Assembly: GCF_057098645.1 (NCBI RefSeq) | Contig: NZ_CM169472.1 | Strand: one strand, 5' to 3' | DNA: 64,000 nt | Part shown: positions 34,929 to 62,187 of the stretch, one piece after another | Layout of the letters: every line of letters begins with the position of its first letter | Numbering within the stretch: position 1 is the first letter of the stretch | The notes under the pieces: generated by a model | What the model was told of the DNA's origin: nothing | Databases searched by the model: none | The model's input: the letters and a program-made list of their open reading frames with translations, nothing else | Translations under genes and position numbers: made by a program

Positions 34929-35684
34929 ATGAGTGATAACCTGTTAAACAAACTGACCCAACTGAAACTCCCGGCGATGGCCGGGAGCCTGATACGGCAG
35001 CGGGAAACGCCTCAGACCTACGACGAACTGTCGTTCGAGGAAAGGCTGACGCTGCTGGTTGATGACGAGCTTCTGAGCAGGGAAAACAGCCGTGTGGCAC
35101 GGTTGAGAAAAAATGCCGGCCTGAAATACCAGGCAACACCGGAAGGGCTGCGCTATCCGGCCTCAAGAGGTCTGCGGGCTGAACAGATGAGAGAACTGCT
35201 GAACGGCCACTACATAACCCACAGGAAAAACCTGCTGATAACCGGTCCGACAGGATGTGGCAAGAGCTGGATAGCCAATGCGCTGGGCGAACAGGCATGT
35301 CGACAGAAACACAGCGTCCGGTACTGTAGAACCGGGCGATTACTGGAACAACTGGCTCAGGGACGTGTTGATGGCAGCTGGCTGAAATATCTGAAACAGT
35401 TGCAAAAAATACAGGTTCTAATCCTGGACGATCTGGGGCTGGAACAGTTAAGTAACGCCCAGTGTAATGACCTTCTGGAGCTCATAGAGGATCGTTACGG
35501 ACAAAGCAGCACGATAGTGGTAAGCCAGTTCCCGGTAGATAAATGGCATGGTCTGATGGAGAACCCAACAACAGCAGATGCCATCCTGGACAGACTGGTA
35601 CATAACTCACACCGAGTGGTCCTTCAGGGAGAGTCACTGAGGAAAAATCCCCCGGTAGTGGAAAGCAGCGAAAAAACGCGTTAA
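34929..35684 (+). CDS. istB: IS21-family helper ATPase IstB
   Basis: 251 aa; Walker A GPTGCGKS and Walker B ILDDLG; 16 nt after istA with GAAGGA RBS. Confidence 0.85.
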   Translation: MSDNLLNKLTQLKLPAMAGSLIRQRETPQTYDELSFEERLTLLVDDELLSRENSRVARLRKNAGLKYQATPEGLRYPASRGLRAEQMRELLNGHYITHRKNLLITGPTGCGKSWIANALGEQACRQKHSVRYCRTGRLLEQLAQGRVDGSWLKYLKQLQKIQVLILDDLGLEQLSNAQCNDLLELIEDRYGQSSTIVVSQFPVDKWHGLMENPTTADAILDRLVHNSHRVVLQGESLRKNPPVVESSEKTR

Positions 35685-35783
35685 AAAGCGGTAGAAAAAG
35701 TTAAGTTCCCGGTTGATCGAATGGATGCGAATCGCTGATCGGACTTCGATGCCAATCCGTGATCGAATAGAGCGGAATACGCA

Positions 35784-35790
35784 CACCAGG
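35784..35790. repeat. Target-site duplication CACCAGG (right copy)
   Basis: Identical to 33138-33144. Confidence 0.8.
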
Positions 35791-36331
35791 GGAGTAGATC
35801 GTACTCAATCCCTCGTGAACCGAGATGGTAAAGCACCTGATTAGTGGCACACTGATTTCCCCCCGGCAGCTGCCAGAGTTCCTGCATATCAGCATAATCA
35901 AGGTTAGAAACGCCCCAGCGGCGGATTTTTCCCTGGGCGATCAATTTTTCCATCGCTGCGACAGTCTCTTCAAAAGCGAAACGGCCAGACCAGTGTAATA
36001 AGTAGAGATCGAGATAATCAGTATTGAGACGGCGTAAACTGGCTTCGCATGCATTTATCGCTTTTTGCCCGCCAGCATTCCACGGATAGACTTTAGAGAC
36101 GAGAAAGACGTTATCGCGCAGACCGGTTAATGCTTCCCCAACCACCTTTTCGGCACCGCCATCGGCATACATTTCGGCGGTATCAATGAGGGTTAAACCG
36201 AGCTCAATGCCCGCGCGTAGTGCAGCAACTTCTGTTTTGCGCTGACTGGCATCTTCGCCCATATACCATGTTCCCTGCCCTATGGCTGGCAGTGAGACAT
36301 CGCCACTAAATTGAATCATTTTTTGTTGCAT
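35784..36331 (-). pseudogene. yeaE: yeaE 5' fragment (N-terminal ~183 codons), fused to IS-derived codons
   Basis: Minus-strand ORF starting MQQKMIQFSGDVSLPAIGQGTWYMG...; authentic sequence runs to ...YDLLPWC at the IS junction, then reads into IS DNA until the stop at 35681. Confidence 0.8.
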
Positions 36332-57783: not shown

Positions 57784-58911
57784 TTACTGCGGATATTCCT
57801 GCAATAAATTGTGTAATGCTTCCGCCATCAGCTCACCACGCCAGCCGGAAATCAGCTCCGGCAAATTGTTCTGCGGTTTCAGTTTCCAGTGCCAGTTCAG
57901 CAGTTGGTTGATTTGCCGACGCGATGCCAGCAATTCGGCGCTGATATTATGCGTTTCGCTCACGTCAGTAATCAGCGACTTAATCGCTTTAAACGCTTTA
58001 CGATAACCCGGCATGTCCATCAGGTTAAGCATCGGCTGCGGTAAGGCATCTTCCGGCAATGTCTGCGCTTTTTCCACCAGCGCCAGCAGCGTTTTACCGT
58101 GAAAGCGGATTTCGCTACCGGATAAACCCAGGCTGTCCAGTTCGCCTAAACTTCCCGGCATATAACGCGCTACCGACCACAAATGCTCTTCACGCACGAC
58201 AAAGTTCACCGCCAGATCGCGCTCTCGCGCCTTGCGCAGTCGCCAGTCGGCTAACAGTTGCAGACAGGCCAGTTGGCGTGTGCGTAATTGCCAGGCATTG
58301 GTGATATCACGCCAGGCATCTTCCGGCGCAACGACTTCCTGACGACGCATTTGCATCAGGCGACATTCATCCAGCGCCGCTGGTAGCCAGCCGGAGGCCT
58401 CCGTTTCTACCATAAGCTTGGCGGTGATCGGTAACAGATACCAGACATCCGCCGCTGCATATTCACACTGACGTTCGGTCAGCGGTCTGGCCAGCCAGTC
58501 GGTGCGCGATTCACTCTTGTCCAGCGTAACGCCGGAATACTCTTCCACCATGGAAGCGAAACCCCATGACATCGGGCGTCCGCAGAAGGCAGCAAGGATT
58601 TGCGTGTCAATCAGGGGTTGTGGTAATTCGCCAAAGACATTGAGGAACACTTCCAGATCTTCACTGCCTGCATGGAGAAATTTTGTGATGGACGGATCGC
58701 GCAGGATCGCTTTCAGCGGTGACCAGTCGGTGATCCCGAGAGGATCAATTAGCGCCAGATGCTCGCCATCGAAAAGTTGAATCAACCCCAGCTGCGGGTA
58801 ATAAGTGCGCGTACGAACAAATTCAGTATCCAGGGCTATCGCCGGAAAGGCACGGACGGCTTCACACAAAGAAGCCAGCGCATCGTCCGTGGTAATCATT
58901 TGGTAATTCAA
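57784..58911 (-). CDS. rnd: Ribonuclease D
   Basis: 375-aa ORF with 3'-5' exonuclease and HRDC domains. Confidence 0.9.
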   Translation of the reverse strand: MNYQMITTDDALASLCEAVRAFPAIALDTEFVRTRTYYPQLGLIQLFDGEHLALIDPLGITDWSPLKAILRDPSITKFLHAGSEDLEVFLNVFGELPQPLIDTQILAAFCGRPMSWGFASMVEEYSGVTLDKSESRTDWLARPLTERQCEYAAADVWYLLPITAKLMVETEASGWLPAALDECRLMQMRRQEVVAPEDAWRDITNAWQLRTRQLACLQLLADWRLRKARERDLAVNFVVREEHLWSVARYMPGSLGELDSLGLSGSEIRFHGKTLLALVEKAQTLPEDALPQPMLNLMDMPGYRKAFKAIKSLITDVSETHNISAELLASRRQINQLLNWHWKLKPQNNLPELISGWRGELMAEALHNLLQEYPQ

Positions 58912-58980
58912 ATTGTATTCTCTTTAGTGGGCGTCAAAAAAAAAGCCGGATTAACCGGCGTCTGACGACTGACTTAACGC

Positions 58981-60666
58981 TCAGGCTTTATTGTCCACTT
59001 TGCCGCGCGCTTCGTCACGTAATTCTCGTCGCAAAATTTTTCCGACGTTAGATTTCGGTAACTCATCACGAAACTCCACCAGCTTCGGTACTTTGTAGCC
59101 CGTGAGCTGACGGCGGCAAAAGGTCACCAGTGACTCTTCGGTAAGCGATGGATCTTTTTTCACTACGAAGATTTTCACCGCTTCACCACTGGAGCCGGAA
59201 GGTACGCCAACAGCCGCGACTTCCTGTACGCCAGGATGCTGCATGACGACATCTTCAATCTCGTTGGGATAGACGTTAAAACCGGAAACCAGAATCATGT
59301 CTTTTTTACGATCGACAATGCGCAGGAACCCTTCTTCATCCATCACCGCGATGTCGCCGGTGTGTAACCAGCCATTTTTGATGATCTCATCTGTAGCATC
59401 CGGACGCTGCCAGTAACCCAGCATCACCTGCGGTCCTTTGACACAAAGCTCACCCGGTTGACCCGGTGGTACTTCATTATCATCATCATCCACCAGTTTG
59501 GCTTCCGTCGACGGCACCGGCAAACCGATGCTACCACTATGATAATCAATATCATATGGGTTAACGCTGACCAGCGGCGCACACTCGGTAAGGCCATAGC
59601 CTTCCAGCAGATACTGTCCTGTCAGTTTCACCCAACGCTCTGCCACCACTTGCTGCACTGGCATCCCACCGCCTGCGGAAAGATGCAGACTGGAGAAATC
59701 CAGCTGCTGGAACTCTTTATTGTTCAGCAACGCATTGAACAAGGTGTTAACGCCAGTGATAGCGGTAAACGGATATTTCGCTAACTCTTTTACCAACCCT
59801 GGAATATCACGCGGGTTAGTGATAAGCAGGTTCTGCCCACCCAGTTCGATAAACAGCAGGCAGTTAATGGTCAGGGCAAAAATGTGATACAGCGGCAGTG
59901 CCGTTACTACCAGTTCTTTACCTGGATGCAGCAACGGCCCATAGGTAGCGTTGACCTGTTCCAGGTTCGCCAGCATATTGCGGTGAGTCAGCATCGCGCC
60001 TTTCGCCACACCTGTGGTGCCGCCGGTGTATTGCAGGAAGGCTAAATCTTCCGGCACCAGTTCGGGTTTGACGTACTGCATCCGGTAGCCGTTATGCAGT
60101 GCGCTACGAAATGAAATGGCATCTGGCAGATGGTATTTCGGCACCAAACGCTTGATGTATTTAACAACGAAATTGACTACCGTGCCTTTTGCCGTAGATA
60201 GCTGATCGCCCATACGGGTCAGAATTACGTGCTGAACGGCGGTTTTATCAACTACCTTTTCCAGAGTGTGGGCAAAGTTAGACACGATAACAATCGCCGA
60301 TGCGCCACTATCGTTAAGCTGATGCTCAAGCTCGCGCGGGGTATACAACGGGTTGACGTTTACGACAATCATCCCGGCGCGCAAAATGCCAAACAGCGCC
60401 ACTGGATATTGCAATAAGTTAGGCATCATCAGCGCAACGCGATCGCCTTTCTTCAGCCCCAACCCTTGTTGCAAATAAGCGGCAAACGCGCGACTGCGCT
60501 CTTCCAGCTTGCGGAAGGTCATCACCTCCCCCATATTCACAAACGCAGGCTGATCGGCGTAGCGCGCGACCGACTGCTCAAACATATCTACCAGAGATTG
60601 ATAACGGTCAGGGTTGATCTCCGTCGGAACGTCCGCGGGATAACGGTTAAGCCAAACCTTCTTCAA
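58981..60666 (-). CDS. fadD: Long-chain-fatty-acid--CoA ligase
   Basis: ORF 58981-60732; likely TTG start giving 561 aa ([13 protein letters not shown]...); AMP-binding motif [12 protein letters not shown]. Confidence 0.9.
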
Positions 60667-60738
60667 TTCTTCACCTCTAAAATGCGTGTTCGTCGTCATC
60701 GCAACCCCAAATGATATACATGCTGTTAACATAATATT

Positions 60739-60755
60739 AACTCATCATACCAGCT
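60739..60755 (-). promoter_or_regulatory. Candidate FadR operator upstream of fadD (proximal)
   Basis: Minus-strand AGCTGGTATGATGAGTT fits the FadR consensus half-sites (TGGT...ACC-like) recalled for the fadD promoter. Confidence 0.4.
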
Positions 60756-60824
60756 TGATAATTACCCAACGAAAAGGTTGCGAAGCGCGTCACTATTTAT
60801 TTTTATCTTTACCGTAAGAATGCA

Positions 60825-60841
60825 GAAACAGCGGACCAGCC
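60825..60841 (-). promoter_or_regulatory. Candidate FadR operator upstream of fadD (distal), overlapping the yeaY 3' hairpin
   Basis: Minus-strand GGCTGGTCCGCTGTTTC; also part of palindrome GAAACAGCGG-ACCAGC-CGCTGTTTC. Confidence 0.4.
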
Positions 60842-60870
60842 GCTGTTTCTTTTTCTTTAAAAACAAGCAA

Positions 60871-61452
60871 TTATTCAGTTACAACTGTTTGTACTCTCGC
60901 GGGGCCGGGATTATACCAGCCCCATCCGCCGTAGCCATAGGGCCAGCCACGACCGCCATAAAACCATGGATCAATCGGCTGAGGCGGCATAATCACCTGC
61001 TGGGTAAAATGCCAACGTTTGTAACCCGTTACTTGCATCACCATAAATTTATAGGGCGTATTGCCGATTTTGCCGTCAACCGCACCAGTGATTGGCCCGA
61101 CTACCGTAACCAGTTGTCCACGGAAATCCACCGGGTCCAGAAAACCGTTCACATCGGCATAAATGCGACCGCGAGAAGGTTCTCCCAGCGTCGGTCTGGC
61201 TCCGCTGTCCAGCGGTACGGTAGCAATCTCCAGGCGGGTTTTCCCTTGCTGGTTTTGTACCGCAACCACTTTGCCACCAAAGCGTGCCTCCTGACCAACG
61301 TACAGCTGCGGCGCACTCATCACCCGAACTAAATCTTGTTGCGGCGTGGGACTGCTGCCTTTAATGGCGTCCGGCACAGTGACACAACCGCTCAGCATTA
61401 GCGCAAACGTACCTGCCAGTATGCCTTTGATAACATTCTTTTGAACCGCCAT
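60871..61452 (-). CDS. yeaY: Slp-family outer membrane lipoprotein
   Basis: 193-aa ORF with lipobox LSGC. Confidence 0.8.
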
Positions 61453-61491
61453 GATGCGACTCCTTTTTTTCTCAGGGCATACTCTTAAGAT

Positions 61492-62187
61492 TCATTCTTT
61501 GCCCGGAAGTTTCTTCCATGCGACGTTGTTACGTAAATAAACCGGTTCGGCATGTTCCACCGCCACCGTTTTACCCTCGGCAAACATCTGACACGCAATC
61601 GGCAGCATATCTTCCGCCGCTGGCAGTAAAACTTCTCCGTCGCGCAAAACCAGCCCGCTCTCTTTACCGAGATCCGGCCAGGCTTGCCAGCCCGTCCCTA
61701 CCGTCACCCATTCGCCGGAAAGCTGTTGCATTCGTTCATGAACGAGTTCGGGTTTGAGTACGGCTTCGGTTTCTTCACCGTGCCAGATACCGTTTTCATC
61801 ACGCTGATATTCGGCCCAGTAAACTTCGCCCATTCGCGCGTCAATGGCTGACAGCACGCGTGTTGCGCCGTTTTTGCGCCACGCCCCTTGCGCCATCGTC
61901 ATTAGCGTGGAGACGCCAATCATCGGTAATTCCGCGCCAAGCGCCAGCCCTTGCGCGATGCCAATACCAATGCGCACGCCGGTAAAGCTACCGGGGCCGC
62001 GCCCGTAAGCCAGAGCGTTAATATCAGTCAGGGAAGTTCCGCTGGTGGTCAGGATATCCTGCACCATCGGTAAGATTCGTTGAGTATGTTCACGAGGGCA
62101 AAGCTCAAAATGAGCGTTGACAGTACCGTCGTTCCACAGGGCGACAGAGCAGGCCTCTGTCGCGGTATCGATAGCCAGAATTCGCAT
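61492..62187 (-). CDS. tsaB: tRNA threonylcarbamoyladenosine biosynthesis protein TsaB (YeaZ)
   Basis: 231-aa ORF starting [17 protein letters not shown] (Kae1/YgjD-family inactive homolog). Confidence 0.9.

Follow-up and report, generated by a model that had tools for sequence, protein, structure and literature searches.

The yeaY-fadD spacer and its promoters

The 64,000-nucleotide stretch of DNA analysed here (hereafter the window) is E. coli chromosome, and its minus strand carries the genes yoaA, tsaB, yeaY, fadD and rnd in this order. A 1-kb query taken around the yeaY-fadD spacer found a match in 5,425 of 5,426 complete E. coli genomes, where the annotated genes are yeaY, fadD and tsaB. 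K-12 coordinates are given throughout as the window position plus 1,829,080, anchored at the TTG start codon of fadD (60666, K-12 1,889,746) and at the yeaY stop (60871, K-12 1,889,951); near the fadD start the window differs from K-12 by a single base (TTAACAGC vs TTAACGGC). The yeaY coding sequence, which specifies a Slp-family lipoprotein, lies at 60871-61452 (minus strand), with its stop codon at 60871-60873. It is preceded by a sigma-E-type promoter, GAAACTT-N16-TCTTAA, at 61480-61513 (minus strand), whose start at 61480 is the b1806 transcription start (K-12 1,890,560). This promoter has the textbook form and sits within the last codons of tsaB.

Transcription of fadD starts at 60727 (K-12 1,889,807, minus strand), the b1805 start site in SMRT-Cappable-seq data, where a fadD-only transcript with this start was recorded (Yan et al. 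2018, PMC6131387); the start site has also been placed 60 bp 5' of the start codon (Feng & Cronan 2012, PMC3460868). A longer fadD reading frame from the ATG at 60732 was rejected, since the mapped mRNA start falls downstream of that ATG, and it follows that the annotated TTG at 60666 is the usable fadD start codon. From the sequence together with the mapped start we infer a sigma-70 core promoter at 60734-60761 (minus strand), made up of a -35 element TTATCA (60756-60761), a 16-bp spacer and a -10 element TAATAT (60734-60739). This is a different pair from the one called by a promoter scan (TTAATA-18-TATCAT), which does not agree with the start at 60727. Further upstream, a putative CRP-type site, AGTGA-N6-TCGCA, can be read at 60779-60794 (minus strand) with its centre at about -60, the Class I position, and a Class I CRP site has been validated in the fadD promoter (PMC3460868).

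The two FadR boxes

The first-pass annotation had placed two FadR-type 17-mers on the minus strand of this spacer, and both are found there, a proximal one (AGCTGGTATGATGAGTT) running from 60755 to 60739 and a distal one (GGCTGGTCCGCTGTTTC) from 60841 to 60825. They are identical to the two published FadR sites of the fadD promoter (PMC3460868, PMC4259882), and Zhang et al. (2014, PMC4259882) used EMSA probes that contain both exact 17-mers. As far as they are described in PMC3460868, the OD1 and OD2 operators of Black et al. (1992) also have the same sequences and the same 68-69 bp spacing, and their positions from the mapped start agree to within 1 nt; the locus is the same one, and only the E. 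coli strain differs. Both sites were therefore already known, and we report nothing new on their existence. A mapped fadD start incompatible with the two positions had been named as a possible refutation, and the one at K-12 1,889,807 is compatible with both.

The two boxes are far from equal as matches to the FadR motif. In the position weight matrix scan that had been proposed as a check, the proximal box scored 13.9 bits and ranked second among 127,968 positions (about 0.65 such scores are expected per 64 kb), whereas the distal box scored 5.0 bits and ranked 105th, a chance-level score for which about 112 occurrences are to be expected in every 64 kb and about 0.3 in every spacer, a contrast bounded by a matrix that rests on only five non-fadD FadR sites (two from fadL and one each from fadBA, fabA and fabB, as printed in PMC4259882). 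The scan thus bore out the proximal box and failed the distal one. Comparison with the canonical 17-bp palindromic FadR operator given in a 2022 review, aaCTGGTCnGACC(T/A)Gtt (PMC9329746), of which the fadBA site ATCTGGTACGACCAGAT is an example, gave a similar picture. The proximal box resembles it, matching at 12 of 16 positions where no 17-mer of the window reaches 13 or more, and, as with other fad operators, its place is over the core promoter. The distal box, in contrast, matches at 9 of 16 positions, a level of at least 9 that is reached by 1,339 17-mers of the window; it has a left half-site only (CTGGTC) and lies about 100 bp 5' of the start. The highest-scoring match to the matrix in the window lies elsewhere, at 35733-35749 on the plus strand (CGCTGATCGGACTTCGA, 15.7 bits, higher than both fadD sites), in the 3' portion of a minus-strand ORF of 216 aa (35681-36331) that adjoins a convergent 332-aa ORF. 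This match could be a chance occurrence or an unrecognised FadR site.

The proximal box (60739-60755, minus strand) spans -12 to -28 from the fadD start. It overlaps the core promoter and occupies the whole of the 16-bp spacer, so that FadR bound there would block RNA polymerase, the usual geometry of promoter occlusion. FadR binding at this site has been demonstrated by EMSA and footprinting, and the probe of Zhang et al. (2014) has the same sequence (PMC3460868, PMC4259882). Moreover, in 76 of 79 Enterobacterales loci a proximal box is found at -85 to -96 from the start codon (searched within -80 to -100), where its usual sequence is AACTGGTACGCTGAGTT. The proximal box is a conserved, classical FadR operator.

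The distal box (60825-60841, minus strand) is a published EMSA probe site that lies at -98 to -114 from the fadD start, a position not compatible with repression of initiation, since promoter occlusion is impossible from about 100 bp upstream. In fact the 2022 review called the position of a fadD FadR site at -100 surprising (PMC9329746). Published EMSA data show that the two fadD sites, 68-69 bp apart, differ in affinity, with site 2 bound more than 10-fold more weakly than site 1; oleoyl-CoA frees FadR from both sites in vitro, and repression of fadD is modest (PMC3460868). The chance-level matrix score of the distal box agrees with this weak in vitro binding. The only other fad promoter with two FadR sites is that of fadL (PMC3460868), which like fadD shows modest overall repression. 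In fadL, however, 8 bp separate two sites of equal affinity close to the start, whereas the fadD sites are 68-69 bp apart and unequal. A literature search for FadR ChIP-exo data at fadD found nothing relevant.

The hairpin downstream of yeaY

What distinguishes the distal box is the structure in which it is embedded. A hairpin, AGAAACAGCGG-CTGGT-CCGCTGTTTCT, with a 5-nt loop, occupies 60824-60850 (minus strand) and begins 23 nt past the yeaY stop. The first-pass annotation had already described a palindrome at this place containing the distal site, correctly except that the stem is 11 bp long rather than 10. The distal box consists of the final two bases of the 5' arm, the entire loop and ten bases of the 3' arm, so that its TGGT half-site is the hairpin loop; the distal EMSA probe GAAACAGCGGCTGGTCCGCTGTTTCTGCATTCT is in fact the whole palindrome (PMC4259882). 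The stem alone folds at about -16 kcal/mol, with z-scores against shuffled sequences of -3.8 on the sense and -4.6 on the antisense strand, and 100 shuffles gave no match to the palindrome. A dispersed or REP-like repeat was ruled out, the palindrome being single-copy in the window even when 3 mismatches are allowed. Nor did an Rfam E-value scan of 58700-61600 place a known RNA family there, its only hit being the sRNA SroD (RF00370, 108.5 bits), which lies at 58937-59022 (minus strand) and overlaps the 3' end and terminator of fadD. A 3' end matching SroD was mapped at K-12 1,888,017-1,888,020 by Term-seq (Adams 2021, PMC7815308). On sequence grounds, then, the proximal box and the hairpin both stand above chance and the distal box does not.

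Transcripts end at this hairpin in vivo. In the data of Yan et al. (2018), tsaB-yeaY transcripts have a 3' end at 60821 (K-12 1,889,901, minus strand), 3 nt beyond the 11-bp stem, in M9 as well as in rich medium. In M9, 19 reads end at this site, 16 pass it and 3 stop no more than 50 bp downstream, which amounts to read-through in 16 of 38 reads with a median length of 1,459 nt (PMC6131387), and the operon table from the same study lists a read-through variant that joins b1807, b1806 and b1805. In rich medium, 24 reads stop at the site, 110 stop within 50 bp downstream and 5 of 139 pass (PMC6131387). We also observed that 110 of 204 tsaB-initiated reads end between 60771 and 60820 (K-12 1,889,851-1,889,900) in rich medium vs 3 of 109 in M9, and these ends suggest that, depending on the condition, transcription stalls shortly before it reaches the CRP site or the fadD promoter. 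The Term-seq set of Adams (2021, PMC7815308) has no 3' end between K-12 1,888,020 and 1,893,787, a range that includes the hairpin, so that the evidence for termination comes from one dataset (Yan 2018); the TERMITe supplement mentions neither yeaY nor fadD. The sigma-E promoter of yeaY is the source of envelope-stress-driven transcripts that meet the hairpin, and the reported effects of sigma-E induction (yeaY 2.8-fold, fadD 2.2-fold and rnd 1.5-fold; Bury-Mone et al. 2009) fit with leakage of such transcripts through it.

Like the intrinsic terminators of Enterobacterales, the element thus combines a stable GC-rich stem-loop close to the stop codon with in vivo 3' ends at its foot and compensatory substitutions in its stem (see below). 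The E. coli version is unlike them in its tail, which on the sense strand (GCAUUCUU, 4 U in 8; GCATTCTT, 4 T in 8) falls short of a U-rich tract, and in giving partial termination with read-through into fadD, whereas other genera carry a textbook stem and U-tract at the orthologous position. The better U-tract of the E. coli hairpin is on the antisense strand: a terminator scan using a stem-plus-T-run rule was positive on the plus strand only, where the tail is TTTTTCTTT. Likewise, a d'Aubenton-Carafa-style score built on ViennaRNA energies, whose values are relative only, came to -15 on the sense vs +25 on the antisense strand in E. coli, with most other genera positive on the sense strand. 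By these measures the sense-strand terminator of yeaY in E. coli is sub-canonical.

We compared 80 Enterobacterales fadD loci, one genome per species, a set that has neither Salmonella nor Klebsiella among its members. In 79 of the 80, yeaY lies directly upstream of fadD, and in 71 of these 79 a hairpin with a dG of -10 kcal/mol or lower is found within 110 nt past the yeaY stop. A sense-strand T-run of at least 5 T in 8 follows 36 of the 71 strong hairpins. Enterobacter has a hairpin followed by a sense T-run (e.g. GTTTTTTT), and in Yersinia, Serratia, Chimaeribacter and Pectobacterium unrelated stems with sense T-runs occur at the same place. Taken together, the presence of a hairpin in 71 of 79 loci and the unrelated stems with T-runs elsewhere are the behaviour of a conserved intrinsic terminator.

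The homologous stem is found in 54 loci (51 distinct sequences), which could be aligned without gaps (alignment A1). Standard pairs fill 90.2% of the pair cells of this alignment, a figure that drops to 42-70% once the 3' partners are displaced by 1-3 columns, and six stem pairs show double, compensatory changes in a total of 35 cells, a count that none of 500 shuffles reached. Pair 23-43 changes from AU to GC in 15 sequences, pair 21-45 from GC to CG or UA in 7, and pair 24-42 from AU to GC in 3. Columns 21-24, which lie outside the FadR box, co-vary with columns 42, 43 and 45, which correspond to its positions 14, 15 and 17. It is therefore base pairing, and not recognition by FadR, that constrains the right half of the distal site. 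The loop, on the other hand, which provides the only good FadR half-site, varies freely: among the 54 homologous hairpins we counted CTGGT (9), TCA (8), CTCGT (5) and CTTGT (4), besides CCGGT, CTAGC, CATGT, CGTGT, CCAGT and others. No single variant is more frequent than CTGGT, which turns up again in scattered genera, yet a TGGT loop is present in only about 8 related loci, and the distal half-site is in this sense not conserved. Feng & Cronan (PMC3460868) noted that Citrobacter, Klebsiella and Enterobacter largely retain the fadD FadR sites, and for the distal site the stem explains this conservation.

The same pattern is seen on a shorter timescale within E. coli. The 66-nt stretch containing the hairpin (60805-60870) is the same as in the window, with its CTGGT loop, in 4,010 of 5,425 genomes. 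A second allele, in which CTGGT is replaced by CCGGT as the sole change, was found as an exact match in 1,017 of 5,422 genomes (about 19%) and lowers the distal matrix score from 5.0 to 0.6 bits. In a third, present in about 7% of genomes by even sampling, AAAA is replaced by ATGCA at the 5' foot of the stem; CTGGT is kept and the 11-bp stem becomes a perfect 19-bp palindrome. The clustering of these changes resembles a quasipalindrome template-switch correction. In one APEC strain, IS200C has inserted precisely at the hairpin's 5' foot. Throughout these genomes the stem is kept or extended, and the FadR half-site is dispensable.

Competing readings of the spacer

We think it likely that the spacer contains one true, ancestral FadR operator together with an incidental site in a hairpin that is selected as RNA structure. 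At the proximal box, FadR would block RNA polymerase at the fadD promoter until long-chain acyl-CoA frees it. The hairpin would serve to end tsaB-yeaY transcripts, and it is the hairpin as an RNA structure that would be under selection. In the E. coli lineage the sense-strand U-tract would have decayed, leaving a leaky terminator through which part of the upstream transcription, including that driven from yeaY by sigma-E, would continue into fadD. The weak in vitro binding of FadR to the distal DNA would then be explained by the CTGGT loop, which happens to create a TGGT next to a GC-rich arm. The evidence favours the hairpin as the ancestral selected element, with FadR binding as a lineage-specific by-product of one loop variant. 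The distal site may nevertheless have an auxiliary role, as FadR binds there in vitro and is released by oleoyl-CoA, and weak selection for FadR binding, and not chance, could lie behind the recurrence of CTGGT; its regulatory share in vivo is probably small, and the function we infer for it is a minor one.

The first-pass annotation had proposed that a single element may act as both the yeaY 3' hairpin and a FadR operator. The physical overlap stands, as does the in vivo 3' end at 60821. What does not hold is an equal standing of the distal box with the proximal operator, given its chance-level matrix score, its more than 10-fold weaker binding in vitro and the co-variation of its right-half bases with bases outside the box. 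The sense-strand terminator of yeaY, too, is sub-canonical. We consider the proposal unlikely in its strong form, where selection would maintain one stretch of DNA for two purposes, as yeaY terminator and as functional FadR operator. FadR at -106 could act as a roadblock that reinforces the leaky terminator and insulates fadD against sigma-70- and sigma-E-driven transcription from upstream until fatty acids are present, or it could cooperate with FadR at the proximal site, 86 bp or about 8.2 helical turns away. That acyl-CoA releases FadR from the distal site in vitro would suit either mode, as would the frequency of CTGGT among the loop variants, and read-through of the hairpin is both real and condition-dependent (16 of 38 reads in M9 vs 5 of 139 in rich medium) at a sense-strand terminator weak enough for a helper to matter. 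However, TGGT is missing from most genera that keep the hairpin and a FadR-regulated fadD, and about 19% of E. coli genomes have CCGGT in its place. The strong proximal site, moreover, would already stop polymerases that read through, and FadR is not known to loop DNA. A more specific variant, to which we give a rather low probability, is that distal FadR is a fatty-acid-responsive roadblock on a deliberately leaky terminator and not a repressor of initiation. If this were true, FadR would help in the absence of fatty acids to keep tsaB and yeaY transcripts, including those driven by sigma-E, out of fadD, and its removal by acyl-CoA would let read-through contribute to fadD expression, so that envelope stress and fatty-acid activation become coupled; E. 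coli lineages with CTGGT and CCGGT would then differ in this coupling.

Two further readings give the palindrome a main role other than that of a yeaY terminator. The better antisense T-run raises the prospect of an element that works mainly as a plus-strand terminator and stops antisense or divergent transcripts from the fadD promoter region before they enter yeaY, and the stem-plus-T-run rule, passed on that strand only, and the score of +25 antisense vs -15 sense in E. coli (relative values) speak for it. We nonetheless regard this as very unlikely, as the SMRT-Cappable-seq tables contain no forward-strand termination site at K-12 18899xx and the Adams (2021) set no plus-strand end at the hairpin, most other genera combine a poor antisense with a good sense T-run, and the W5-6 allele lacks the plus-strand T-run. 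The arms of the palindrome can also be read as a second fadD promoter of sigma-E type, GAAACAG-N16-TCTGCA, with the distal box as an ordinary operator in its spacer, in exact parallel to the proximal box in the spacer of the sigma-70 promoter. They do resemble the genuine yeaY promoter 650 bp upstream (GAAACTT-N16-TCTTAA, 61485-61513), fadD is induced by sigma-E, and genomic-SELEX peaks for the sigma-E and sigma-28 holoenzymes were reported in the fadD-yeaY spacer (Shimada 2017, PMC5493296), although at a resolution of 200-300 bp and with low signal. Yet the SMRT-Cappable-seq operon table has 1,889,807 as the only fadD-proximal start, under conditions in which the sigma-E start of yeaY was detected; moreover, Enterobacter-type stems (GAGAC) no longer have the AAC of the -35-like element, and read-through accounts equally well for the induction by sigma-E. 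This leaves a second promoter with hardly any credence, the smallest we give to any of these readings.

An incidental site in a selected hairpin also offers an answer to the puzzle noted in the 2022 review (PMC9329746), namely the presence at fadD of a second FadR site at -100, where a repressor makes no sense: this site would be the loop and one arm of the yeaY terminator hairpin. The FadR half-site comes and goes even inside E. coli and the hairpin is what stays, and the apparent conservation of the distal site is a caution against taking such conservation as evidence of FadR function. The natural alleles with CTGGT, with CCGGT and with the 19-bp palindrome would make the question of the distal site an easy one to test.
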